DNA of 64,000 nt, taken from an uncultured bacterium. Lineage in GTDB: Bacteria; Patescibacteriota; Patescibacteriia; UBA9570; XYC2-FULL-38-9. The notes under the pieces were generated by a model, which did not search any database, was not told where the DNA came from, and was given only the letters and a program-made list of their open reading frames with translations. The stretch lies in NCBI GenBank assembly GCA_937996685.1, contig CALKUP010000006.1, positions 1 to 64,000 of the forward strand, in the 5' to 3' direction. Below, in pieces: positions 4,130-60,905 of the stretch. Every line of letters begins with the position of its first letter. Within the stretch, counting starts at the first letter, position 1. A program made the translations under genes and the position numbers.

Positions 4130-5266
4130 ATGGCAAAAACATTTCGTGTTCTTCCGATGCTCCGTGTCGCTCAAGTGATTGATTGGTGGTATGTCAGTGC
4201 TATTGCTGTCATGGTCTCTTTTGGACTGCTCATGCAGTACAGTATTTCAACGAATAAAGATGCGAGTGATCCTGAGCAGTTTCAAAAGCAAGTATTGTTT
4301 GTGTTGATTGGTGTCGCGCTGTTCGCTCTATTTTCCATTATCGATCATCGTCGCATCCGATTGCGTGTCGGCATGTGGTATGCGTTATGTTTTATTGCGC
4401 TGCTGTCTGTCCTTATCTTTGGTAAAACTATTCAAGGAACAAAAGGCTGGTTTGTGATTGCTGGATTTTCTTTGCAGCCGGTTGAATTTGTGAAACTTGG
4501 TTTTATTTTATTTATGGCGCATTACCTTGAAGGCAGTCTGACGCGCATGCGACAATGGCGGGTTGCGATGATCTCTGGGATTGCCGCGGCTGTATTGCTG
4601 CTCCTGATTTTACTGCAACCTGATCTTGGGTCTGCGATCATTCTGTTTGGCGTTTGGTTTTCGTACGTTCTATTTTTACGCGCACCAAAATCATTCATCG
4701 CTCTGGTGAGCCTGTCTGTTATTCTCGCGTCAATGCTTGGGTGGACTGTGTTATTTGAAGACTATCAAAAAGATCGGCTTGTGGTGTTTTTGAACCCACA
4801 AAAGTATGCGGAAAAAGAAGGGTACAACGTGGTCCAATCAATGATTGCCGTTGGTTCTGGCTCACTCTGGGGCAGAGGACTGGGCTTTGGGACGCAAAGT
4901 CAGCTCCATTTTTTGCCTGAAGTTGCCTCTGACTTTGTGTTTGCTGCCCTCGCAGAAGAATTTGGATTCATCGGGGTTGTGACTGTCATCGGCTCTCTCG
5001 GGATTATTTTAGTCCGGCTTTGGATGTACATGCGCTACACCACGGATGAATACTTCTTCTTGCTCTGTTTCGGTACGTTCTTTTACTTATTGATCCAAAG
5101 TACGATGATTATTGGGATGAACATCGGTATTATGCCTGTCACAGGAGCTCCATTGCCACTTGTGAGCGCTGGAGGATCCTCAATGATTATGACGCTCGGA
5201 TTACTTGGTTTGGTGCATTTTTTCGTTATTCATGGACAGGCTCGAAAAACCACTCTCTCAAGTTGA
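4130..5266 (+). CDS. SEDS-family peptidoglycan polymerase (FtsW/RodA)
   Basis: Ten TM helices. SEDS signature GSGSLWGRGLGFGTQSQLHFLPEVASDFVFAALAEEFGFIG. Confidence 0.9.
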   Translation: MAKTFRVLPMLRVAQVIDWWYVSAIAVMVSFGLLMQYSISTNKDASDPEQFQKQVLFVLIGVALFALFSIIDHRRIRLRVGMWYALCFIALLSVLIFGKTIQGTKGWFVIAGFSLQPVEFVKLGFILFMAHYLEGSLTRMRQWRVAMISGIAAAVLLLLILLQPDLGSAIILFGVWFSYVLFLRAPKSFIALVSLSVILASMLGWTVLFEDYQKDRLVVFLNPQKYAEKEGYNVVQSMIAVGSGSLWGRGLGFGTQSQLHFLPEVASDFVFAALAEEFGFIGVVTVIGSLGIILVRLWMYMRYTTDEYFFLLCFGTFFYLLIQSTMIIGMNIGIMPVTGAPLPLVSAGGSSMIMTLGLLGLVHFFVIHGQARKTTLSS

Positions 5267-48274: not shown

Positions 48275-50119
48275 TTACTTCTGATTGGCTTTCACGATCG
48301 CTTTAATACGACGAATGCCAGCCGCTGAAGACTTTTCGGAAGTAATGTGGAATTCTTCCAGCTCTTCTGTGTTTTCAACGTGTGGGCCACCACAAATTTC
48401 AATCGCAAATGGATTGTCCTCGGGTCCGATATAATAGACCTTCACTTTATTCCCAAGGCGCGCATATTCATCATCAAAATAGCCAATTGCACCTAATGCC
48501 TTTGCTTCATCAACGTCTAATTCTTTCCAGAATACTGGTTGCTTTAACGCAATTTGTTCGTTAATCACACGATCAAGTTCGGTTTTTTCTTCTGGTGTCA
48601 GCGCCTTGTCGTAATTAAAATCAAAGCGCAAGCGATCTGGTGTAATATTTGAACCCTTTTGCATGATTTGCTCGCCAAGCATATTTTTCAATGCTTTGTG
48701 CAACAAATGTGTTGCCGTATGCAAACGACGTGATTCAATCGAATGGTCAGCGAGACCGCCTTTGAACTTTTTCATACTCCCCGCTCGAGACGTATTTTGA
48801 TGTTTTTCAAATTCTTGATCAAACGACATTTCATCAACATTCGCTCCCCGTTCACGGGCGAGCTCAACAGTCATTTCAATTGGAAAGCCGTACGTTGAAA
48901 ACAAAATAAATGCATCGTGTCCTGAAATACTTTGCTTATCTTTTTCAATCAACTTTTCAAATTCTTTCATTCCTTTTTCAAGGGTTGCGCCAAATTTTTG
49001 CTCTTCTGCCCCAAGCCACTCAAGAACACGAGATGAATTTTCCACCAACTCTGGATATGCCTCTCCGTACATTGTCGTCACCTCTTGCGCAAGTGTTGAT
49101 AAAAACTCACCAGTCGCGCCTAATGCACGGCCTTCGCGAATTGCACGACGAATCAACCGTCGAACGATATAGCCTTGATCAACATTACTTGGTGGAATGC
49201 CAAAATGATCACCCATAATAAACACAACGGTTCGCAAATGATCTGCAATAATACGCATTCCAGCCATATGATTACCTTCATATGTTTTGCCGGTCACTGC
49301 TTCAATTTTCTTTATCAGTTGTTGAAAAATATCGATTTCAAAGACTGTCTGCGCGCCTTGAGAGACCATCGCAAGACGTTCTAATCCCCAGCCGACATCA
49401 ACGTTTTGTTTTGGCAATGTATCAAAGCCGCCTTTTCCATCTTTTGCGTATTGCATGAAGACGTCGTTTCCAATTTCGATAATATCACCGCGATCACACG
49501 CCGCAACAAATTCATCGTGCGATAAATCACCAAGCTCGCCAGTTGTATCATAAAAAATTTCTGTATCTGGACCGCATGGGCCAGTATTTCCTGGAAGATC
49601 CCAAAAATTATCTTTGCGTCCTAAAAAGTAAATGCGATCCTCGGGCATTCCAGCGCGCTTCCAAATATCAGCCGCCTGCGTATCTTGCGGAATATCGTGC
49701 TCGCCTTCAAAACATGTGACATATAAACGAGACAGCGGTAAGCCAAGTCCGACTTCTTCCGATGTCATAAATTCAAATGTCCACGCAATGGTGTCTTCTT
49801 TAAAATAATCACCGAGACTCCAAAAACCGAGCATTTCAAAAAAGGTCAAATGACGATTATCACCGACTTCATCAATATCAATGGTGCGAACGCATTTCTG
49901 GGAATCCGTCAGACGCGTGCCTTCTGGGTGTGGCTCGCCCATTAAATATGGAACCAGCGGATACATCCCGGAGTTCGTAAACAGTAATGTTGGGTCGTTT
50001 TCTGGAATCAATGAACCAGAAGGAATCACGACGTGACCTTTTGACTCAAAATACGCAAGAAAGCGGCGGCGGATTTCATTTGTCGACAAGATATGTGCTG
50101 GATGTTGCATAAAAATCAA
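48275..50119 (-). CDS. alaS: Alanyl-tRNA synthetase, short form (catalytic + tRNA-recognition + editing domains; no C-Ala domain)
   Basis: FTNSGM and QKCVRT motifs, GDxxHLTFFEMLGFWSLGDYFK, the editing-domain HTATHLLH zinc site and a CGGPHV motif. 614 aa. Confidence 0.9.
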   Translation of the reverse strand: MIFMQHPAHILSTNEIRRRFLAYFESKGHVVIPSGSLIPENDPTLLFTNSGMYPLVPYLMGEPHPEGTRLTDSQKCVRTIDIDEVGDNRHLTFFEMLGFWSLGDYFKEDTIAWTFEFMTSEEVGLGLPLSRLYVTCFEGEHDIPQDTQAADIWKRAGMPEDRIYFLGRKDNFWDLPGNTGPCGPDTEIFYDTTGELGDLSHDEFVAACDRGDIIEIGNDVFMQYAKDGKGGFDTLPKQNVDVGWGLERLAMVSQGAQTVFEIDIFQQLIKKIEAVTGKTYEGNHMAGMRIIADHLRTVVFIMGDHFGIPPSNVDQGYIVRRLIRRAIREGRALGATGEFLSTLAQEVTTMYGEAYPELVENSSRVLEWLGAEEQKFGATLEKGMKEFEKLIEKDKQSISGHDAFILFSTYGFPIEMTVELARERGANVDEMSFDQEFEKHQNTSRAGSMKKFKGGLADHSIESRRLHTATHLLHKALKNMLGEQIMQKGSNITPDRLRFDFNYDKALTPEEKTELDRVINEQIALKQPVFWKELDVDEAKALGAIGYFDDEYARLGNKVKVYYIGPEDNPFAIEICGGPHVENTEELEEFHITSEKSSAAGIRRIKAIVKANQK

Positions 50120-50235: not shown

Positions 50236-50688
50236 TCAGGCGTACGCGACGTCGGAGTTCACACTCAGGACCGCCGAACGAACGGCGGCCACAAGCGCCC
50301 ACTCGGGAACAGTTCCCTCGCCCTGCGGTGTCATCCTTTCGCCCTTCTGGACAAACTCGTGAACGAGTTCGCCATAGCGCCAAAAGGCTTGCTGCGTGGC
50401 GTAGGTCATGGTCCCAGACATCACGATGACTCTTTTGTACGGCGCGCTTTCGCGGCCATCCATGGTCATCGTGCGGTGCAGTTCGTGAAACGAACCGCGT
50501 CCGAGCTCTACATCAGTCACGACGACGTCCACCTGCTCTCTCCCGAGCAGCGTCATTGCTTCCCAGATCGTTCTGGCCACGAACACGTCGTAGCCTTCGG
50601 ATTCCAGGAGGCGCTGCGCCACCAAGAGATTCACAGGTGTGTCATCGATGACTAACACCTTCAACCTCTGTGCTTTTTGTGTATTCAA
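50236..50688 (-). CDS. Stand-alone response-regulator receiver (CheY-like) protein within a GC-rich island
   Basis: Receiver residues: DD (IDDT), phospho-acceptor D (VVTDVEL), S (VIVMSG) and K. ~120-aa REC plus a 30-aa tail. Local GC is about 57% against about 43% in the flanks. Confidence 0.75.
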   Translation of the reverse strand: MNTQKAQRLKVLVIDDTPVNLLVAQRLLESEGYDVFVARTIWEAMTLLGREQVDVVVTDVELGRGSFHELHRTMTMDGRESAPYKRVIVMSGTMTYATQQAFWRYGELVHEFVQKGERMTPQGEGTVPEWALVAAVRSAVLSVNSDVAYA

Positions 50689-50954: not shown

Positions 50955-53753
50955 TTAGCTCAATCTTTCAGCTTGTTTCACGGTCATTTCTCCATTTACA
51001 CCCAATACGACCGTATCGCGGCGTCCTAACTCTTGAGAGAGCATCAGCTTCGCAAGTCCATCATCAACGGTGTCTTGGATCGCACGTTTGAGCGGACGAG
51101 CGCCAAATTGTGGGTCAAATCCACGCTTGGCGATATCAACAACTGCTTCCGGCGGGATCTCCATCACAATCCCTTTTTGCGCCTTTAACTGCGTCGCGAC
51201 CTTTTGCAACATATTATCTGCAATAAAGACCACCTCTTCAAATGTCAGCGGTTTAAAGACAACAATATTATCAAATCGATTTAAAAACTCTGGAGCAAAA
51301 AATTCAAGCAGTGGACCATCCATGAGCTGTGTTTTAATTTGATCTGATGAAAGCCCTGCGTTAAAACCGTTTTGAATCGCGCGCGTTCCGGCATTGGATG
51401 TCGCGATAATCATGATGTTGCTCAAATCAATTGTTCTCCCCTTTCCATCTGTTAACCGGGCGTCATCCATCACTTGCAAAAAGACATTCAAAACATCACG
51501 ATGCGCTTTTTCTAACTCATCGAGCAGCAACAATCCGAACGGCTTTAATCGAACGGCTTCGGTTAAAATTCCTTGTTCGCCATTTGTGCCGATTAATTTA
51601 TAGAGTGATGACGGAGTTTGATATTCACTCATATCAATACGGATCATGTTGTCTTCATTTCCAAAATAAACCTCCGCGATTGTTTTGGCTGTTTCGGTTT
51701 TTCCAACTCCAGTCGGTCCTAAAAATAACAAATTAGCAATTGGACGATGTTGATCTCGCAAACCTTGCCGCGCTCGGCGCAACGCTGACGCCACTGCTTG
51801 CACGGCCTCGTCTTGCCCAATCACACGGTCATGCATGATTTCCTCGAGGTGCAATAATTTTTGGCGTTCATCTTCTGTCACAGCAGAAACTTTGATGTTC
51901 GCTTTTTGTGAAATCACTAACGCAACATCATCTTTTGTCACCATACTATTTGCTCCCTTTTGCGCCTCAACGGCGGACGCAACCTCAGATGCAATGTCTA
52001 ATGCTTTTGCCGGCAAATATCGGTCTTGAATAAACTGCATCGATAAATCAACGGTCGCGGCAATCGCGGCATAGGAAAAGAAGGTGTGATATTTATATTC
52101 CAAACTCCCGGCTTTTGCTTCAACAACTTGAATGGCATCTTCACGAGTCATCTCATTGACTTGGACAACACGAAACCGTCGCAATAGTGGCCCTTTGTTT
52201 TCAATAAATTGTTGATATTCCTGCGTTGTTGTTGTCGCGATCACTTTCACAAGACCTTGCGACATTGCGTTCATTAAAATACCAGACACATCTTCAGAGC
52301 CTGATCCCGATCGCATATTCACTAAATGATGGACATCTTCAATCCCAAGAACAATGTTTCCAGCGCGTGCAATTTCAAAAATCACTTGCTGCATCCGTCC
52401 TTCAACAGCGCCGACTCCACCGGCGTTTGCAATGAGCGCACCTGGATCTAACACCACAAAACGCTTGTCTTGTAATTCCGGCGGAACATCTTCTGATGAC
52501 ATCACTTGGGCAACACCTTCAAACAAGCTGGATTTTCCAGCGCCCGGAGGCCCGACAAGGAGTACATGCGACACTCGGTCACGTAAAATTCTGAGCACTT
52601 GTTCCATTTCGGCTTCACGTCCAATCAACGGAAAAAATCCACCGCTGGCTGCTGTTGCTGTGTAATCACTGGACATTGATTGCAGGAGCGGAGAAGGCCG
52701 CGCAGTCATCGCACGATCCATAATCCCGTTTGGTTTTGACCCGGCTCGAGATTTCCACTCTCGATATCGGTCTTGTAGATTTTTTTGAATATGTATCCAT
52801 TGCACACAAGCCCTGAGCATGTCTTCATCAATTTCTAAATCATCGAAAATTTGAATTGCCCAAGCATCACGCGTTGTGATCATGATAAACAGCTCCATCA
52901 CATCAACATACTGCCGTTTACTTCGGCGGGCTTCTGCAAACGCATAAAATAACACTTGCTTCAATTCAACTCCCATATCCAAACCACCGCCAACCTCAAC
53001 GCCTTCCTTTCCAAATGCGACGCCAATCCGCTGCATCATTGGCTCACGAGCAACGCCCAGTCGCGCTAAAATGATTTTAATCGATGTACTATCTGAAACA
53101 GCTGCCAATAAATGCAACGGCGTCACAACATGATGATTCAACGACCGCGCAAGTGAATACGCAGACTCAATCGCAATAATTGCCTCCTTTGTAAAATACG
53201 GAGCCATATCAACCCGGTGCGATTTTCCTGTGTGATTGTACCCGTTAAATGTCCGGTTTGCTGGATGCTTCCAACTCCCCATTTCTTTCCACGCGTTCAA
53301 AGCCTTTTCAGAATATCGAAACGATTCTTTCGATGCCTTTTCTAAAGACAGTCGATAATACAAGAACAACAACGCGAGCATCCCAATCCAAAACATCGTC
53401 ATCGACAACGACGGCACAAGCAATACATCAAGAATGTCGCCAGCATCTCGTTGATTTACAAAAATCGCAACCGCAAGACCGAGGATGCCAATCATCGCAA
53501 CAAGAAACACAACTAATTGCAATCCAAAGTGCGCATATCGCAATAAGCGGCGCTCTGCAATTCCTGTTGCGGTAATCGGGAGATTCCAATACAGCAAAAT
53601 AGAGTCGAGAATCGCGTACACACTTGGGTTGTTCTCACAATTATGACACGCCACGTGTTGCCGACTTGGCGTTACAGTAAAGCCAAAGCCTTCACATGTT
53701 TCGCATGGAATAAACTGCATTGAGACTGTTGGTTTTTCTGGTGCTAATTCCAT
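50955..53753 (-). CDS. ClpC/ClpB-like class-I double AAA+ unfoldase with N-terminal zinc ribbon and two TM helices
   Basis: CETCEG..x17..CHNCE ribbon and 2 TMs. Clp_N repeats. AAA1 (GPPGAGKS, sensor ATTTT). AAA2 (GPTGVGKTE, LLLLDELEKAH, ATSNAG, GARPLKR). The M domain is short. A possible ClpP loop reads NGF rather than I/VGF. Confidence 0.85.
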   Translation of the reverse strand: MELAPEKPTVSMQFIPCETCEGFGFTVTPSRQHVACHNCENNPSVYAILDSILLYWNLPITATGIAERRLLRYAHFGLQLVVFLVAMIGILGLAVAIFVNQRDAGDILDVLLVPSLSMTMFWIGMLALLFLYYRLSLEKASKESFRYSEKALNAWKEMGSWKHPANRTFNGYNHTGKSHRVDMAPYFTKEAIIAIESAYSLARSLNHHVVTPLHLLAAVSDSTSIKIILARLGVAREPMMQRIGVAFGKEGVEVGGGLDMGVELKQVLFYAFAEARRSKRQYVDVMELFIMITTRDAWAIQIFDDLEIDEDMLRACVQWIHIQKNLQDRYREWKSRAGSKPNGIMDRAMTARPSPLLQSMSSDYTATAASGGFFPLIGREAEMEQVLRILRDRVSHVLLVGPPGAGKSSLFEGVAQVMSSEDVPPELQDKRFVVLDPGALIANAGGVGAVEGRMQQVIFEIARAGNIVLGIEDVHHLVNMRSGSGSEDVSGILMNAMSQGLVKVIATTTTQEYQQFIENKGPLLRRFRVVQVNEMTREDAIQVVEAKAGSLEYKYHTFFSYAAIAATVDLSMQFIQDRYLPAKALDIASEVASAVEAQKGANSMVTKDDVALVISQKANIKVSAVTEDERQKLLHLEEIMHDRVIGQDEAVQAVASALRRARQGLRDQHRPIANLLFLGPTGVGKTETAKTIAEVYFGNEDNMIRIDMSEYQTPSSLYKLIGTNGEQGILTEAVRLKPFGLLLLDELEKAHRDVLNVFLQVMDDARLTDGKGRTIDLSNIMIIATSNAGTRAIQNGFNAGLSSDQIKTQLMDGPLLEFFAPEFLNRFDNIVVFKPLTFEEVVFIADNMLQKVATQLKAQKGIVMEIPPEAVVDIAKRGFDPQFGARPLKRAIQDTVDDGLAKLMLSQELGRRDTVVLGVNGEMTVKQAERLS

Positions 53754-54130
53754 AACGCGAGTGAATCAATAATTCCAACATGAAATAAAATATTCCACAC
53801 AATGGCCACCGGAACAAGAATCCACAACACAAACCCAATCAACAACACAAGCGTATACAGCAATGTCCAAATAGATAAAATCAAAAAATGCGCGAGCCGA
53901 ACATACAAACTAATCAAACGACCGACGATGTCGTTTTGACCGTACATTGGCGTCAGCAAAAAACGAAACAAGATCCGTAGATTATACGCGCGAGCAAATC
54001 CGTGCAATTCTTTTCCAATCAACTGTAATACATTCCATACACCAACTGTATACCACCAGACCGGAAAATACAGCACACTCCATACAATGTCTGTAAAAAT
54101 AAATCGTAATGGTTCAAAAAATGCATTCAT
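53744..54130 (-). CDS. Small polytopic membrane protein (hypothetical), overlaps the start of the ClpC-like gene
   Basis: 128 aa, 3-4 TM helices. Its stop overlaps the downstream AAA+ gene start by 10 nt, so likely translationally coupled. Confidence 0.45.
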   Translation of the reverse strand: MNAFFEPLRFIFTDIVWSVLYFPVWWYTVGVWNVLQLIGKELHGFARAYNLRILFRFLLTPMYGQNDIVGRLISLYVRLAHFLILSIWTLLYTLVLLIGFVLWILVPVAIVWNILFHVGIIDSLALWN

Positions 54131-54172: not shown

Positions 54173-54622
54173 CTACGCAGCCAGCAATCGCGCATCTTCA
54201 AGAAGTGTTTCAAAATATTCTTTTGAAGACGGATATGACAAGCGCTCAAGGACAGCTTGTCCGTCACACCACTCGCCTCCATCCACTTCTGACATATCGA
54301 GCGGTAAACCCGTTTCTTCAATGACACGCATTAAGAAAAAGACAACATGATTTCGGTCACCATTTGGTGCTGTGTATGCATGCTCCGGCAAACGCTTCAC
54401 GATTTCGCATCGAAAACCAGTTTCTTCCAAAACCTCGCGCAATGCCCCTTCTTTCAATGTTTCCCCTGAATCAATATGCCCTTTCGGAAATGACCAATCG
54501 TTGTATCGATGACGATGAATTAAGAAAAATTCGGTGTGCCCACCAACTGTTCGCATGATAATTCCTCCAGCTTTGGTATGTTGTTGTTCATTCATCCCTG
54601 TAGTATACAGGAGTTTACCCAT
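54173..54622 (-). CDS. NUDIX hydrolase
   Basis: Nudix box GHIDSGETLKEGALREVLEETG. Confidence 0.8.
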   Translation of the reverse strand: MGKLLYTTGMNEQQHTKAGGIIMRTVGGHTEFFLIHRHRYNDWSFPKGHIDSGETLKEGALREVLEETGFRCEIVKRLPEHAYTAPNGDRNHVVFFLMRVIEETGLPLDMSEVDGGEWCDGQAVLERLSYPSSKEYFETLLEDARLLAA

Positions 54623-55775
54623 TCAGACGAATCACACGCTCGCAACTCTCAAGTGTACGCTGCGCAAAATGCTCCCATGAAAACCGTTCCGTATTTTTTT
54701 TGCCAAGAAGTTGATACCGCTCACGTAGTTCACGATCTTCAATAATTCCCCGAATTGCTCGACTAAGACTCTTGCTATCAAGCACATCACACCACAATAC
54801 AGAATCATGGAGCGTTTCTTGTAGTGACGAATGAAAGCCAGCGATCACTGGAACGCCATGCATCTGCGCTTCGAGCGGCGGAAATCCAAACCCTTCAAAT
54901 AACGATGGGTAGACGCACACCGTCGCGTTTGCATAGAGTTGTTGCAGGGCAGCATCTGACGCGTAATCAAGCACATGAATCTGCGTATTTCCTTGCACTC
55001 GCTCGGCAATTTCATCAGCTCGATATCCGAACTTTCCAATCAACACAAGCTGCGCTGTCGGGTGTGATTGCTGCAGCTGCGTGAACGCATCAATCAGCGC
55101 GGTCGTGTTCTTTCGTGGTTCAATTGTTCCAACAGCAACAATCGTCGGCTGTCGCGGATCAATGCCATACGTCGCTTGTATATCGACCGGCGCGTCAACA
55201 TCTGATCGAAGTGGAACGCCTGGGTATGTGACACTGATCTGATCTGCAGGCAATGTGTATATCACTTGCGCGTCTGCAAATGTTGCGAGCGAAACAGCCA
55301 CGACTTCAGCGGCGTGATGTAACTGCGCACGCGGCCGCAACAACCAATGACGAACAACGCTTTTCACACTTTGCTCTTCGCTCATGCGCACGAATGAAAA
55401 ATCATGCACCACTTGAATAACGGGAATATCATCAGACAATGGAGTGAACTGCAAATTTGGTTGAATCACCACATCAACATCACCAAATAATTGACGCAAT
55501 GAAGGAAAACCAAAAAACGATGCAGCGGTCAATAGTTTATTTGGTATCGATCGAAACTTCCAGGTAATGTGTGCCGTTTCAGGAATATGCAACTGATCAA
55601 CAATGCGCTTGCGTTCTGCTGGCGCACGCAATGACTGTCCGGAAAAAAACAAAACGAACTCGTAGTTTTCGGGGTCTGCATATTGCAATACCGATTCAAC
55701 GAGTCCTTTTGTATATTGAGACACACCAGATGGGTATGCCTCTTGCAGCGCGCGACAGTCAATACCAATTTTCAT
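54615..55775 (-). CDS. Glycosyltransferase family 4
   Basis: MKIGIDCRAL start and the motif YPSLFEGFGFPPLEAQMHGVPVIAG. The longer ORF to 55835 would overlap the upstream gene. Confidence 0.8.
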   Translation of the reverse strand: MKIGIDCRALQEAYPSGVSQYTKGLVESVLQYADPENYEFVLFFSGQSLRAPAERKRIVDQLHIPETAHITWKFRSIPNKLLTAASFFGFPSLRQLFGDVDVVIQPNLQFTPLSDDIPVIQVVHDFSFVRMSEEQSVKSVVRHWLLRPRAQLHHAAEVVAVSLATFADAQVIYTLPADQISVTYPGVPLRSDVDAPVDIQATYGIDPRQPTIVAVGTIEPRKNTTALIDAFTQLQQSHPTAQLVLIGKFGYRADEIAERVQGNTQIHVLDYASDAALQQLYANATVCVYPSLFEGFGFPPLEAQMHGVPVIAGFHSSLQETLHDSVLWCDVLDSKSLSRAIRGIIEDRELRERYQLLGKKNTERFSWEHFAQRTLESCERVIRLNG

Positions 55776-55791
55776 CAGACCAGTCCCGCAA

Positions 55792-56409
55792 TTATGCTTT
55801 TCCCCCTTCGCGGATATATTGACGAACGTAGACAACGAAGATGCTCAAGAAGAACCCCGCAACAACACCAAGCCCGAGCGCCATCCATTGATTTAACTTG
55901 CCAGCAACAACAACTGGTGTTTGCGCTTTGACAACAAATTGCGTTTGGTCACCAGATTGCACTTGAGACGCTGATTCATCACTCACTGTTTTCGCAACAG
56001 AGTCTGCTAATTTTTTCGCTGTCTCTTCATTAAAGTCATAAAACAATACAACAAATTGTTGACTTGAATATTGTTTCGCTTGAAAACGACCAGTAAATGA
56101 ATTCACTGTTTTAATTGTATATCCTTGACCTGCGTTATCATACACCTTGCCCACAAACGCTGGCGACTTAAACCAACTCATTAAATGCTGTGTAAACAAC
56201 TCAGCACCTTTCAAATCGTAATACGCGCCATATTGATATTCAGGAGATGATGCACGGTTTGCAATTGCAACATCAAACGCAACAACCGCATTGTATTTTG
56301 TTGGCTGAGTGACAGCCCATGCAAACGCACTGATAGCGCACAATAGGGTGAATAAGAGAATAAACCATTGTGATTGCTGAAGGATTTCTTTATGTGTTGT
56401 GACTTTCAT
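55792..56409 (-). CDS. Wzz/CpsC-like polysaccharide chain-length determinant (two-TM, short form)
   Basis: N-terminal TM followed by a PTKY-type motif (QPTKYNAVVAF), a ~130-aa extracytoplasmic domain, and a C-terminal TM. Confidence 0.45.
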   Translation of the reverse strand: MKVTTHKEILQQSQWFILLFTLLCAISAFAWAVTQPTKYNAVVAFDVAIANRASSPEYQYGAYYDLKGAELFTQHLMSWFKSPAFVGKVYDNAGQGYTIKTVNSFTGRFQAKQYSSQQFVVLFYDFNEETAKKLADSVAKTVSDESASQVQSGDQTQFVVKAQTPVVVAGKLNQWMALGLGVVAGFFLSIFVVYVRQYIREGGKA

Positions 56410-56423
56410 ATATATAAATGCAA

Positions 56424-57539
56424 TTAAGTAGTTTTTTGAAATGCGTTGTAGCTCTCTGTCACAAATGACTCTATTTCATTTGTAAACCGCTCGAGACTAA
56501 AGGTCAAGGCGCGCTCTCGAATCACAGCTGGATCATACCGCATTGGATCAAAATCAATCAAGAGATTCGCAAGATCCTCCCAACTTTGATGCGCCATCAA
56601 TTCTCCGTGAACACCTGGGACAACAATCTCTTTTGCACCAGCTTTATTCAACCCAATCACTGGACGACCAGCTGCAAGCGCTTCAATCATCGTGATGCCA
56701 AAATCTTCTTCTTGTGGATTAATGAACGCGAGACAATGTTCAAACAACGCTTTTCGCTCGGCATCTGGAACACGTCCAAGAAATTCAATATTCGCATTGT
56801 TCCCGGCTTGTCGTTTCAGATCGGCAAGCGCTGGACCAGATCCAAAAATTTTCAACTTCTTCCCGGTCTTCATACAAGCCTCAACAATTAAATCAAATCG
56901 TTTATACGGAACCAGTCGTCCGCCTGCTAAATAATAATCACCTACCTCTTCTTTTGACACAGGGGTAAAATCCGCAACATCAACTGGCGGATAAATCACA
57001 ACACTGTCGCGTTTGTAATATTTCCGTAACCGCTTTTCAACAGCGTTTGAATTTGTAATAAAGTAATCAACGCGGTCTGACGCTAAACGATCCCACATAC
57101 GAATCCGTGTCAGCAATAATTGCAAAATGTTTTTGACAAATCGATTCCCAGACATATCAGTCACATATGAATGCGTGTCACTCCACAAAAAACGCGTCGG
57201 TGTGTGGCAATATGAAATATGCACTGTTTCCGGACGCGTGATCACCCCTTTCGCGAACGAAGAGGTCGTTGACAGCACGACATCAAATTCAGACAAATCA
57301 TAACTCTCGACCGCCGTTGGCATGAGGGGAAAATACCATTGATATTTTTTGACACCAAGCGGGAGACGTTGAATAAATGATGTTCGAATATCTTTTTTCA
57401 AAAAATATGGATGGGCGTGCTTTGGATCATGCACAACAACATACACCGGCGCATCAGGCCAAATCTCACAAAAGGCACGCAACACATTTTCAGCGCCACC
57501 GTCTTGCGCAAGATGATCATGAACTAAAGCAATTTTCAT
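56424..57539 (-). CDS. Glycosyltransferase family 4
   Basis: MKIALVHDHLAQDGGAENV start and a GT-B C-terminal EX7E region. Confidence 0.8.
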   Translation of the reverse strand: MKIALVHDHLAQDGGAENVLRAFCEIWPDAPVYVVVHDPKHAHPYFLKKDIRTSFIQRLPLGVKKYQWYFPLMPTAVESYDLSEFDVVLSTTSSFAKGVITRPETVHISYCHTPTRFLWSDTHSYVTDMSGNRFVKNILQLLLTRIRMWDRLASDRVDYFITNSNAVEKRLRKYYKRDSVVIYPPVDVADFTPVSKEEVGDYYLAGGRLVPYKRFDLIVEACMKTGKKLKIFGSGPALADLKRQAGNNANIEFLGRVPDAERKALFEHCLAFINPQEEDFGITMIEALAAGRPVIGLNKAGAKEIVVPGVHGELMAHQSWEDLANLLIDFDPMRYDPAVIRERALTFSLERFTNEIESFVTESYNAFQKTT

Positions 57540-57543
57540 ACGT

Positions 57544-58962
57544 CTATAATGTGTTTCGTTTTTTTAATAACGCGAAGGGTGTTTTTAATACAATAATCAC
57601 ATCCAGCCACAATGCCCAGTGTTCCATATAATATGTATCCAATCGCACCTCATCTTCAAAATCGAGGTCAGATCGCCCAGTCACTTGCGCGAGCCCGGTA
57701 ATTCCCGGCTTCATATATAATACACGTTTATGATGTTTTTGGTATTGCGCCACTTCTTCCGGCAAATGTGGACGCGGCCCCACCAAACTCATATCCCCTT
57801 TTAATACTAAGAAAAATTCTGGTAATTCATCAATACTAAACCGACGAATAAACGAACCAACCCGCGTCACTCGAGGATCATCGATAATTTTCACCATTGG
57901 CGATCCTTTTCGGGCATTGCGTTCTTGCAACTGCTCGTCATAACGCAGCGAATCGGTGTTTTGTTTCATTGAGCGAAATTTGAAATACCCAAACGGTTTG
58001 CCATATTGTCCAATCCGTTTTAACGAAGTGCCGTCATCTTTCTTGCTGAAAAAAATCGGGAAACCAGAATCAATAACAATCGCAACAGCCGCAGCGAGCA
58101 TAATTGGAGATGATGCAATAATCAAAAACAGACTCCCAACAATATCAAATAATCGTTTCAAAATTCTTCCCCACCCTTCGAGCGGTGTTTTTTTCACTTC
58201 GACAATTGGAATTCCTCCGATTGGTGCAATCGAAATTGTGCCGACCGGCATCTCAGCAATGGACGCGGCATATTTAAACACCAAATGATACTCATCACAA
58301 AAATCAACGAGCCGTTTCATGGTTTCACGATCCGATCCTCCGTCAGTCAATAACAGCTCTTCAATGTCTCGTGTCTCCGCCAGCGCTTGCAACTCACGTT
58401 CTACTTCGACCGTAAAGCTATTGTATGATTTTTGAATCGCATATCCGAGTGTTGGTTTTTGCGCAAACTCTTCACGAATCACATTCGCAATGTGTCCTTC
58501 CCCAATTAACGCAACCCGTGTTAAACCAATCCCTTTTGTAAACAGACGTCGCTCAATCACAATGACAGCGATGCGGAACAACAAAACGTATACTAAAGAA
58601 AAAACAAACGCCGTTAAAATAATAAACCGAGATGAAAATAAATCACGATTGACGAAGACGAGTACAATCACTGTCAGCACGCCCGTTGCGCACGACACGA
58701 ATACTTTTCGAATTTCATCAATGATCCGACGGTTGCCATCGATTTGATACAAGCCGTTCCACCAAAAAATCACAATCCAGAGAGCAGCCACAAGCAGCAA
58801 TGCTGTAATAAATTGCTGACGTGGGATTGCGTAAATCGCCGGAGGCAGTTGCTCAATACTTTCGTTAAAACGAACAGCGTACGCCGTTAAACCTGCGAGT
58901 ACGATAAAAAAATAATCAAATGGAACCAACAAGACGCTGAGAGCGAGTTCAATTTTTTTCAT
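57544..58962 (-). CDS. Polyprenyl-phosphate hexose-1-phosphate transferase (WbaP/CpsE-like bacterial sugar transferase), priming enzyme
   Basis: Five N-terminal TMs and the C-terminal Bac_transf domain: KRLFDIVGSLFLIIASSPIMLAAA...FKFRSM...DELPEFFLVLKGDMSLVGPRP. Confidence 0.85.
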   Translation of the reverse strand: MKKIELALSVLLVPFDYFFIVLAGLTAYAVRFNESIEQLPPAIYAIPRQQFITALLLVAALWIVIFWWNGLYQIDGNRRIIDEIRKVFVSCATGVLTVIVLVFVNRDLFSSRFIILTAFVFSLVYVLLFRIAVIVIERRLFTKGIGLTRVALIGEGHIANVIREEFAQKPTLGYAIQKSYNSFTVEVERELQALAETRDIEELLLTDGGSDRETMKRLVDFCDEYHLVFKYAASIAEMPVGTISIAPIGGIPIVEVKKTPLEGWGRILKRLFDIVGSLFLIIASSPIMLAAAVAIVIDSGFPIFFSKKDDGTSLKRIGQYGKPFGYFKFRSMKQNTDSLRYDEQLQERNARKGSPMVKIIDDPRVTRVGSFIRRFSIDELPEFFLVLKGDMSLVGPRPHLPEEVAQYQKHHKRVLYMKPGITGLAQVTGRSDLDFEDEVRLDTYYMEHWALWLDVIIVLKTPFALLKKRNTL

Positions 58963-59445: not shown

Positions 59446-59591
59446 ATTGAGCAGCTATCCAAAGAACCAGTACAGCGCACACATAAGCACAATTCGATAC
59501 AATATACGTTTTTTCGACTTGTCTGTGCTGGATGAACATACAATATTTTAAGCGATTAGTCAATATTTTTTGTTGTGATATACTACAGGAT

Positions 59592-60905
59592 ATGTCAGAA
59601 CGATATACAACCAGACCGCGGTACACAAATGCTGTAGAAACACCCATTCAGTCTATAGCTGTCGACAACCGAACCCAGCACAGCGCTGAACCAACAATGG
59701 ATTTTGACAGCGACACCGAAGCGTCAACGTCTTTTGTTGCAAAGCCTGATGCGCCTCAAGCATCACAAGGTCGTGTGTCATCACAAGACGCACTCGCACA
59801 CCCCGGCGCAGAACAAGAACACACAGCTGTGGAGCACTCAAACAATCGCAATCCTGAACTCAATGCCCAGCGCGCAACACTCTATGCGCTTGTGGATGAA
59901 ATGAAAACTGATCATTCATGGGAAAATGCGTTTATCTACAACAGACTGATTCATCGCATGGGCCATCCGAAAGTCACTATCAGGGACAAGAAACCGTATC
60001 GCATTGATAAATTTCTCGGCCGAGGAGGCTTCAGCAGGACGCTTACTGTCTCTCAAGAAACTGGGCGCATGGATCGCGCACAATTTGTGATGAAAGTATC
60101 AAAACCGTTTTCGCTTGCCGCAATGAACGGAAGCGATCGACAGGCAGCATCGCATGCAAAAAATGCTTTACTTGAAATTGAAGCACTCCGACGCCTGTCA
60201 ACACTCGGCACGGAGAACCCAGCACCTGCTCTCGAAGCTGCCCAGCTCATTCCAGATCCTGACAACATGGATTCACGCATTGCAACAATTGTGATGGAAA
60301 AAATTCATGGCGAAACACTGCATGATTTTTTAGCAGAATCACTCTCATTAGATACTGGTATTGCGATTATTCAAAAAATGATTCACGCAATTTCTGTCAT
60401 TCACGAAGCTGGCATTATTCATGGCGACTTAAAAATGGAAAACATCATGGTGTATGACGAAAACCCTGCAAACACACCAAACGCAGAGGCCATTGATACT
60501 CCTCATTATCAAGTAAAAATTATTGACTTTGGCGGCTGCACCATCACAGATGAGCCGGATAGCCGTAAAGCCCAACAACGACTCTTGCACAACATTCCGC
60601 TACCAACATATCGCAAACGCGAGTTGTATCAATATACTCGTGACTTTGGACTGCCAAGGAAAACAGACGTCGCCGCACTCCGCGATGAATATAGTCTTGG
60701 TCATGTCATTCATACATATTTCACAGGTCTCTGGCGCAGAATTGCTATTGGGGAATATCCAAACACCATTTCACAACAAGTCGATACAATCGTGCATGGA
60801 TTAACCAGCACGGATGAAGCAACGCACATCACAATACTTGAAGCCGAACAAAAAATGGCAGCGGTGCATGCAGCAATTCTTAAATATCAAAACAAGGCGG
60901 ATTAA
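59592..60905 (+). CDS. Eukaryotic-like Ser/Thr protein kinase (non-RD: HGDLK), with disordered N-terminal region
   Basis: G-loop GRGGFS, VAIK-like FVMKVSKP, catalytic loop IIHGDLKMENIM, DFG (IIDFGG). I chose the ATG at 59592, which has an AGGA RBS. Confidence 0.8.
   Translation: MSERYTTRPRYTNAVETPIQSIAVDNRTQHSAEPTMDFDSDTEASTSFVAKPDAPQASQGRVSSQDALAHPGAEQEHTAVEHSNNRNPELNAQRATLYALVDEMKTDHSWENAFIYNRLIHRMGHPKVTIRDKKPYRIDKFLGRGGFSRTLTVSQETGRMDRAQFVMKVSKPFSLAAMNGSDRQAASHAKNALLEIEALRRLSTLGTENPAPALEAAQLIPDPDNMDSRIATIVMEKIHGETLHDFLAESLSLDTGIAIIQKMIHAISVIHEAGIIHGDLKMENIMVYDENPANTPNAEAIDTPHYQVKIIDFGGCTITDEPDSRKAQQRLLHNIPLPTYRKRELYQYTRDFGLPRKTDVAALRDEYSLGHVIHTYFTGLWRRIAIGEYPNTISQQVDTIVHGLTSTDEATHITILEAEQKMAAVHAAILKYQNKAD

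Follow-up and report, generated by a model that had tools for sequence, protein, structure and literature searches.

A membrane-anchored Clp/Hsp100 paralog without tyrosine pore loops and its membrane partner in Patescibacteria

Clp/Hsp100 proteins are the textbook machines for ATP-driven threading of polypeptides, and all characterized bacterial members are, to our knowledge, soluble proteins with tyrosine pore loops. Here, we describe a gene pair on contig CALKUP010000006.1 of an uncultured member of the Patescibacteriota (GenBank assembly GCA_937996685.1), within the stretch of 64,000 nucleotides (nt; positions 1 to 64,000) that was analyzed as a whole and is referred to as the window. The pair consists of a gene for a 932-amino-acid (aa) Clp/Hsp100 paralog, called the Clp below, and a gene for a 128-aa integral membrane protein, called the partner. 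We have high confidence that the Clp is a genuine, widely conserved, membrane-anchored Hsp100 paralog with a dedicated membrane partner. For its mode of action, we favor, at a probability of roughly 50%, a reading in which the second AAA+ module (D2) would be the sole motor and the first (D1) an ATP-binding assembly ring. Polypeptides would not be threaded, and membrane-proximal clients or the partner itself would be remodeled or gated.

Architecture of the gene pair and its products

The two genes and the domains of the Clp are located as follows.

50955..53753, minus strand: Clp/Hsp100 paralog gene, 932 aa (open reading frame [ORF], Pfam and NCBIfam matches, homologs, AlphaFold2, Foldseek)
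53744..54130, minus strand: integral-membrane partner gene, 128 aa (ORF, family, locus survey, AlphaFold2)
53744..53753, minus strand: 10-nt overlap of the partner stop and the Clp start, ATGGAATTAG
53589..53717, minus strand: beta-rich zinc ribbon of the Clp, residues 13-55, CxxCxGFGF...CxxC (alignment; AlphaFold2 strands 13-55)
53457..53528, minus strand: transmembrane helix 1 (TM1), residues ~76-99 (hydropathy, AlphaFold2 helix)
53349..53411, minus strand: transmembrane helix 2 (TM2), probable, residues ~115-135, moderately hydrophobic, ending in the conserved FW...LYYRL (hydropathy, AlphaFold2 helix, consensus)
52743..53198, minus strand: Clp N-domain, residues ~186-337, eight helices (Pfam Clp_N, ClpC alignment, AlphaFold2)
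51834..52619, minus strand: AAA+ module D1, residues ~379-640, degenerate
50979..51833, minus strand: AAA+ module D2 with D2-small, residues ~641-925, catalytically intact (AAA_2 at 163 bits, motif census)

An earlier reading of the window made from its sequence (the original prediction) had described a typical Clp N-domain with two AAA+ modules, which is confirmed by Pfam and by the alignment with ClpC. The Pfam matches are Clp_N (24.5 bits against a cut-off of 20.7, one repeat), AAA (75.9 bits), AAA_lid_9, AAA_2, and ClpB_D2-small (71.9 bits). Against the NCBIfam models, the protein scores 552 bits with ClpB (cut-off, 1232) and 500 bits with ClpA (cut-off, 993), the latter in one continuous alignment over residues 193-909. 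Among solved structures, it is closest to ClpC and ClpB, both by sequence and by fold, with Foldseek E-values of 1e-57 to 1e-44. The AlphaFold2 model, built on a 49-sequence alignment, has a predicted local distance difference test (pLDDT) score of 89.2 and a predicted template modeling score of 0.79. It is confident across the domain junctions and places the eight helices of the N-domain at residues 189-337, in the region that aligns with the ClpC N-domain. Tandem AAA+ modules, a D2-small domain, and a Clp N-domain are features of class I Clp/Hsp100 proteins, and all three are present. Within this class, the alignments place the protein with high confidence outside ClpA, ClpB, ClpC, and ClpE, because the defining features of each were looked for and not found. 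The predicted absence of a protease domain also holds, as Pfam gives no Peptidase_M41 match in the Clp and the HE[AGS]GH motif is absent from the ORFs of the window. PADLOC finds generic D2 homology only (DolB, 116 bits; PDC-M37B, 111 bits) and no specific defense-system match for the Clp.

A separate observation concerns the linker between the N-domain and D1, which carries the family-specific motif KP(K/N)GIMDRAMTAR (Clp residues 335-352; ~52698-52751, minus strand). R347, T350, and A351 occur in at least 85% of the members, and the AlphaFold2 block means of 70-78 mark a lower-confidence stretch.

The N-terminal 190 residues contain no Pfam domain above the cut-off. They begin with a zinc ribbon whose cysteines C17, C20, C36, and C39 form a CxxC-x15-CxxC pattern; the ribbon had been recognized correctly in the original prediction, apart from its spacing, which had been given as x17. 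The first knuckle, CxxCxGFG[YF], is kept in the core clade and shortened in distant members, and the ribbon is absent altogether in ~15 of 70 relatives, proteins of 859-909 aa in which the four cysteines are gone. Since these cysteine-less members still have the membrane hairpin, the partner, and the pore-loop losses described below, the ribbon is an accessory cap.

The ribbon is followed by a membrane hairpin. Kyte-Doolittle hydropathy in a 19-residue window reaches 3.05 for TM1 (residues 81-99) and 1.95 for TM2 (residues 110-128). The family-averaged peaks are 2.06 and 1.36, respectively; nothing comparable is seen in canonical Clp proteins. AlphaFold2 places helices at residues 62-102 and 116-141. 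Lysine and arginine residues flank the cytoplasmic sides and the connecting loop of ~15 residues is acidic, which fits an N-in/C-in hairpin. TM1 is secure and TM2 is probable, in agreement with the earlier proposal of a membrane tether with two transmembrane helices; either way, the ATPase must face the cytoplasm. Pairing of a conserved aspartate in TM2 with the invariant arginines of the partner was also considered and dropped as a general rule, as this aspartate is missing from the window protein and from those most closely related to it. A HMMER search of 1.84 billion representative proteins returned 37 matches to the N-terminal module. All of them are Clp-length proteins or fragments thereof, and the extension is therefore confined to this Clp family and is not a fused neighbor gene.

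The partner gene overlaps the Clp start by 10 nt, as had been noted before. The second in-frame ATG of the Clp corresponds to Met12, and a start at this position would abolish the overlap; no obvious Shine-Dalgarno sequence precedes either candidate start. Together, the two genes make up an operon, probably with translational coupling.

The partner itself has no Pfam, NCBIfam, or PADLOC match. It contains a hydrophobic stretch of ~42 residues (76-118) and, toward the N terminus, a less hydrophobic segment rich in aromatic residues, and its AlphaFold2 model (pLDDT, 86) consists of three helices, which suggests a protein with two or three membrane spans. No similar fold was found for this model among PDB structures. 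Two motifs are invariant, with the family consensus YFP[VI]WWY..G and PM[YF]GQ.D...R..S...R:

54050..54070, minus strand: YFPVWWY, partner residues 21-27
53897..53950, minus strand: PMYGQxDxxGRxISxxxR, partner residues 61-78

A survey of one genome per GTDB species recovered relatives of the partner in 419 species-level genomes, all of them metagenome-assembled genomes (MAGs) of the Patescibacteria type. The lineages named among them are Kerfeld-, Falkow-, Uhr-, Magasanik-, Buchanan-, and Parcubacteria, and many records are generically labeled. In 70 of 79 partner loci, a Clp of this type lies directly downstream on the same strand, at gaps of -32 to +152 nt (typically -32 to +12 nt). The other nine loci comprise four contig edges, three start artifacts of longest-ORF calls, one 588-nt gap, and one intervening ORF. 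The pairing persists even beside distant members whose flanking genes differ entirely. Partner and Clp are thus close to an obligate two-gene unit and essentially an obligate operon, which substantiates the two-gene module expected from the original prediction.

On the side of the Clp, 41 full-length homologs of 894-938 aa share 35-79% identity with the window protein at 98-100% coverage, the named sources being MAGs of Kerfeldbacteria, Uhrbacteria, and Parcubacteria. More than 65 independent assemblies share this architecture, at identities down to ~35%. The core common to all members is made up of the partner and a Clp with hairpin, N-domain, degenerate D1, and an active D2, the pore loops being gone. 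Databases list the Clp homologs as "ATP-dependent Clp protease ATP-binding subunit," "ClpC," or "AAA family ATPase" and the partner as "hypothetical protein." A full-text literature search gave no account of a membrane-anchored or pore-loop-less bacterial Clp, in line with the earlier remark that such a module is undescribed for Clp ATPases, and an absence from that search is no proof.

Motor motifs, pore loops, and soluble paralogs

The functional motifs of the Clp were compared with those of canonical ClpA, ClpB, and ClpC in HMMER and MAFFT alignments, and a motif census was taken over 65 family members recovered from genomes. Four sites depart from the canonical proteins.

52395..52430, minus strand: D1 pore-loop site, residues 442-453, ANAGGVGAVEGR in place of AG.K[YF]RGEFE.R, aromatic-free
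52326..52355, minus strand: D1 Walker B, residues 467-476, IVLGIEDVHH, Asp-Glu order inverted, no catalytic Glu
51561..51599, minus strand: D2 pore-loop site, residues 719-731, KLIGTNGEQGILT, six residues of PPGYVGY deleted (HMMER and MAFFT alignments)
51345..51389, minus strand: position of the ClpP-docking loop, residues 789-803, including N795-G796-F797

Both tyrosine pore loops are missing. In D1, the family has a glycine-rich GxGxxEGR where the canonical K[YF]RGEFE stands, and [KR][YF]RG is missing in 68 of 70 relatives. The six-residue deletion in D2 is family-wide, and none of the 70 relatives has G[YF][IV]G. The residue in front of LTE (position 729; Tyr, Ile, or Leu, with Tyr in 39 of 65 members) was examined as a substitute for the lost pore-loop tyrosine in D2 and rejected: canonical Clps vary in the same way (GGQLTE, GGILTE, GGLLTE), and E. 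coli ClpB reads GGYLTE at the equivalent position.

The two AAA+ modules differ sharply in conservation. In D1, GIEDVHH (residues 470-476) aligns with FIDELHT of ClpC. The catalytic Walker B position is occupied by asparagine in 37 and by aspartate in 24 of 65 members, the window protein having the aspartate version, and the catalytic glutamate is found in none of them (0/65). The degenerate first module deduced from GIEDVHH in place of the usual IDELH is therefore a property of the whole family. The D1 arginine fingers are lost in most members (the clade of the window protein keeps RR), and the Walker A lysine is sometimes lost as well. In D2, by comparison, Walker A, Walker B (DE), sensor 1, the arginine finger, and sensor 2 are identical in all 65 members. 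Mean pairwise identity is 64% in the D2 large domain, about 42-44% in D1, and 22-27% in the N-terminal parts.

At the position of the ClpP-docking loop, the family varies widely (NAF, NGL, NMV, NYL, and others), and no more than 4 of the 65 proteins have any [ILVMF]G[FLM] tripeptide there. In the window protein, the tripeptides are N-G-F and A-G-L. The NGF to which the original prediction had drawn attention at this position is a clade-specific coincidence; it was considered as a variant ClpP loop and dropped, as it is not conserved across the family. Docking of this Clp to ClpP is unlikely on these grounds. The M-domain is absent too: ~55 ClpC residues (406-461) have no counterpart in the Clp, and MAFFT likewise places a gap here. 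With the M-domain, both tyrosine pore loops, and the conserved ClpP tripeptide all missing, the label "ClpC-like unfoldase" cannot be upheld, and there is no visible basis for unfolding or extraction by threading. The same applies to "extraction module," since the canonical threading loops have been lost, by substitution in D1 and by deletion in D2.

An internal control is provided by soluble ClpB-like paralogs encoded on contigs of the module, in which KFRG, GYVG, and IGF are all retained. In one subclade, such a gene adjoins the module. Its product of 879-882 aa has an M-domain and matches the ClpB model over its full length with 1195 bits. As neither window protein had an exact match in the contig index, gene context was taken from the loci of homologs, labeled L001 and so on, and the soluble genes and the nearby CIRCE elements (HrcA operators) are found at the following positions.

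L005:2208-4847, minus strand: soluble ClpB-like gene; CIRCE at 4877-4903
L006:2135-4774, minus strand: soluble ClpB-like gene; CIRCE at 4848-4874
L007:2177-4822, minus strand: soluble ClpB-like gene; CIRCE at 4856-4882
L046, L048, L055, L063, L065, L072, L076, L077: equivalent soluble genes
L048:4388 and L072:3541: CIRCE
Nine further loci: CIRCE

The CIRCE sequence, TTAGCACTC-N9-GAGTGCTAA, is perfect or has one mismatch in these 14 loci. It lies 23-30 nt upstream of the soluble clpB-like start, whereas its distance from the module can reach 1.5 kb, and some copies stand in a short divergent region common to the soluble gene and the small-gene/Clp operon. A search of the window for CIRCE found none. 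Heat-shock control of the module through CIRCE was considered and is unproven, as the elements belong to the neighboring soluble clpB-like gene. As an observation on the soluble protein itself, its IGF sits in an inserted loop. True ClpB has no ClpP-docking tripeptide, and "BAP" is an engineered ClpB. From its sequence, the soluble protein looks like a natural counterpart of BAP and may be a ClpP-coupled disaggregase in bacteria of the Candidate Phyla Radiation (CPR).

Gene neighborhoods

In the window, which looks Kerfeldbacteria-like in its GC content (~44%) and its synteny with loci L001 and L002, the pair ends a packed string of genes on the minus strand, in the order Bac_transf, GT4, Wzz-like, GT4, NUDIX, partner, and Clp. 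The surface-glycan part of this string (54173-58962, minus strand) has gaps of 0-42 nt or overlaps and the same order in L001 and L002.

57544-58962, minus strand: Bac_transf, PF02397
56424-57539, minus strand: GT4
55792-56409, minus strand: Wzz-like
54615-55835, minus strand: GT4
54173-54622, minus strand: NUDIX

No clpP, ftsH, or other AAA+ gene lies within the 64-kb window, the rest of the genome being outside that scope.

Other settings recur among the related loci. A WecA-like transferase gene (PF00953) follows the Clp in 32 of 80 loci; it scores higher on ECA_wecA than on mraY, below the cut-off for both. In ~9 loci, the pair comes directly after mraZ, rsmH (MraW), and a 119-aa FtsL-like gene (L085:3121-5300, L058, L062, L073, L053, L078), the position after ftsL being the one that ftsI normally occupies in the dcw cluster. 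In L070, rnpA and yidC are directly upstream of the small gene (L070:2986-4510). These neighborhoods, together with the soluble, heat-shock-regulated ClpB described above, point to cell envelope or division-associated membrane proteostasis, as a lead and not as proof.

Several neighboring genes are of interest in their own right. In several genomes, the WecA-like protein and QueH (epoxyqueuosine reductase, PF02677) are joined in a single product of 520-550 aa (L006:8271-9842, L007:8079-9728, also L025, L039, L046, L048, L061, L063, and L087). QueH is a separate neighbor in other genomes, and TGT is found upstream in 11 loci. In the window, the gene directly downstream of the Clp (50236-50688, minus strand) encodes a stand-alone response-regulator receiver protein of 150 aa with no output domain, which is shared with L001 and not with L002. 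The alanyl-tRNA synthetase (AlaRS) gene at 48275-50119 (minus strand) encodes 614 aa (TTG start in the longest ORF), and the 612-aa AlaRS of L001 consists of tRNA-synt_2c and tRNA_SAD only. Bacterial AlaRS usually has ~870 aa, and the window enzyme appears to have no C-terminal domain. Just upstream of the glycan/Clp string, 59532-60905 (plus strand) encodes a divergent eukaryotic-type Ser/Thr kinase protein of 457 aa (Pkinase, 55.6 bits).

Proposed mechanism and comparison with known systems

Sequence comparison shows an ATPase held at the cytoplasmic face of the membrane by the N-in/C-in hairpin, with the Cys4 ribbon as a cap in most lineages, a D1 ring that binds nucleotide but is catalytically degenerate, and a fully intact D2 ring. 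In the reading that we favor, a hexamer would bring together 12 transmembrane helices and the partner subunits, and would be assembled and stabilized by ATP-bound D1. Hydrolysis in D2 would drive this hexamer without processive threading of polypeptides and without feeding ClpP. Movements of D2 would be relayed through the N-domain, ribbon, and hairpin, so that membrane-proximal clients or the partner itself would be remodeled, released, or gated. Such a working logic would be closer to that of Torsin with LAP1/LULL1 than to that of ClpC/ClpP, with no claim of homology.

Several points weigh against this mechanism. It is derived from motifs that have been lost, and we infer physical contact between partner and Clp from gene order. 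TM2 is only moderately hydrophobic. The Clp N-domain and a DnaJ-like CxxCxGxG knuckle are retained, which suggests that the Clp still binds protein clients, and the non-aromatic loops might still move polypeptide. In the clade of the window protein, D1 may keep some hydrolysis, as it retains Walker A, sensor 1, and both arginine fingers, with E-D for D-E. ClpP is available in at least some hosts, because the contig of the module in L070 encodes clpP ~4 kb upstream (L070:525-1103; PF00574, 274 bits), with a product 64% identical to B. subtilis ClpP. The neighborhood signals vary by clade and may be plain synteny.

These points bear most directly on the idea that the Clp is a membrane-tethered, ClpC-like unfoldase that threads damaged membrane proteins together with the partner, like FtsH minus its protease, and possibly hands them to ClpP or another protease. 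The two-ring Hsp100 fold with an N-domain, the membrane anchor, and the intact D2 motor would suit such a role, and the DnaJ-like knuckle could bind unfolded chains. The CIRCE-controlled soluble ClpB next to one subclade, and yidC directly upstream and clpP on the same contig in L070, also speak for it. Nevertheless, we regard it as unlikely, given that both canonical tyrosine pore loops are missing, that control of the DnaK or MecA type would have no M-domain to act on, that the ClpP tripeptide is not conserved, whereas the soluble paralog keeps its IGF, and that CIRCE sits next to the soluble gene rather than the module. A largely non-motor scaffold or regulator is a distinctly unlikely alternative. 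The Clp would then be an ATP-switchable membrane adaptor, for instance one that sequesters a division or envelope factor, comparable to the plant Hsp100-like regulators SMAX1/D53. The progressive decay of D1 (Walker B, arginine fingers, sometimes the Walker A lysine), the loss of the pore loops, and the position of the module after mraZ-rsmH-ftsL agree with this idea, but every catalytic motif of D2 shows 100% conservation and no other part of the protein is conserved as strongly as D2, which speaks for selection on genuine ATP turnover.

A translocation or secretion motor, in which the ring would sit under a channel of hairpins and partner and export proteins or a lipid-linked glycopolymer, as in HSP101-EXP2 (PTEX) or Bcs1, is very unlikely. 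A hexamer would put 12 transmembrane helices and the partner helices right over the ring, the pore-loop deletion would widen its channel, and polyprenyl-phosphate sugar transferases (PF02397 in the window, the WecA-like PF00953 elsewhere) are neighbors of the module. However, neither fold nor homology searches linked the partner to a channel, the hairpin has an external loop of only ~15 residues, and the neighborhood link is incomplete and varies by clade. Known Hsp100 translocon motors, moreover, keep their pore-loop tyrosines (HSP101/ClpB). The chance that the Clp is an artifact, a frameshifted or misassembled fusion of a membrane or zinc-finger gene to an ordinary clpC, is close to nil. All sources are indeed MAGs, but the same continuous architecture recurs in the independent assemblies counted above down to 35% identity, AlphaFold2 is confident across the junctions, and only proteins of Clp length carry the N-terminal module. 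A separate, frameshifted gene for the N-terminal 150 aa, the outcome that would have spoken against the original prediction, is likewise ruled out by the single continuous ORF in the window and the recurrence of its architecture in more than 65 genomes.

With Torsin-like logic, the module could be the first bacterial membrane-integrated, non-threading Hsp100, with a single active D2 ring anchored by a hairpin and a dedicated small membrane cofactor, that remodels or gates envelope or division components in class-level CPR lineages. It would then stand as a functional class of its own among Clp ATPases; we put this broader claim forward only tentatively. In the minimal genomes of Patescibacteria, genes that are kept tend to be important, and the module is found in hundreds of species of this group. 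It is a natural test of what an Hsp100 ring does without threading. It may also be the bacterial equivalent of Torsin, whose mechanism still awaits explanation, and it is a new candidate factor in CPR envelope and division biology, a field that is poorly understood. Its anatomy would surprise an AAA+ specialist, and both genes are small enough for direct expression and imaging.

Among known systems, the Clp shares the N-domain, the two AAA+ modules, and D2-small with ClpA, ClpC, ClpB, and ClpE, and its D2 is ~40% identical to that of ClpC and ClpB. Its layout without an M-domain is that of ClpA, which has an IGL loop and tyrosine pore loops, whereas the window Clp has neither. ClpC has a short coiled-coil M-domain between D1 and D2, and ClpB/Hsp104 has a long M-domain for coupling to DnaK and active D1 and D2 modules; the window Clp has no M-domain and no catalytic glutamate in D1. 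ClpE and ClpX carry an N-terminal Cys4 zinc finger. In ClpE, this finger is placed directly on D1 and is accompanied by a UVR-type M-domain and a ClpP loop, while the ribbon of the window Clp is followed by the transmembrane hairpin and the N-domain, with no M-domain or ClpP loop. What sets the window Clp apart from all class I Clps is its N-terminal membrane hairpin and the near-obligate membrane partner gene.

FtsH resembles the Clp in that its AAA+ ring is tethered to the membrane through the N-terminal part, with both termini on the cytoplasmic side, and in its membrane-proximal proteostasis setting. However, FtsH combines a single AAA module with an M41 protease domain (HEXXH), has aromatic pore loops, and places a sizeable domain in the periplasm, whereas the Clp has two AAA modules, no protease, and no aromatic pore loops. 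The FtsH-like topology of the original prediction is therefore retained as far as N-in/C-in anchoring is concerned, but without a periplasmic domain, as only the ~15-residue loop is external. PTEX (HSP101-EXP2-PTEX150), Bcs1, and Msp1 are further examples of Hsp100 or AAA rings that work at or in a membrane assembly. HSP101 and Msp1 differ in keeping aromatic pore loops and threading their substrates, and EXP2 of PTEX is not homologous to the partner. Msp1 is described as an extractase in PMC12793716. Torsin is a membrane-associated relative of the Clp/Hsp100 D2 module without aromatic pore loops that works with membrane-protein cofactors and is thought not to thread (PMC5425593). The lack of aromatic pore loops and the membrane cofactor are what Torsin with LAP1/LULL1 has in common with the Clp, as an analogy in which orthology is not demonstrated. 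Torsin is lumenal, has a single AAA module, and is missing its own arginine finger, which the cofactor supplies. In the window Clp, by contrast, the D2 arginine finger is invariant, the ATPase is cytoplasmic, and the partner, a small helical membrane protein, has no AAA-like fold.

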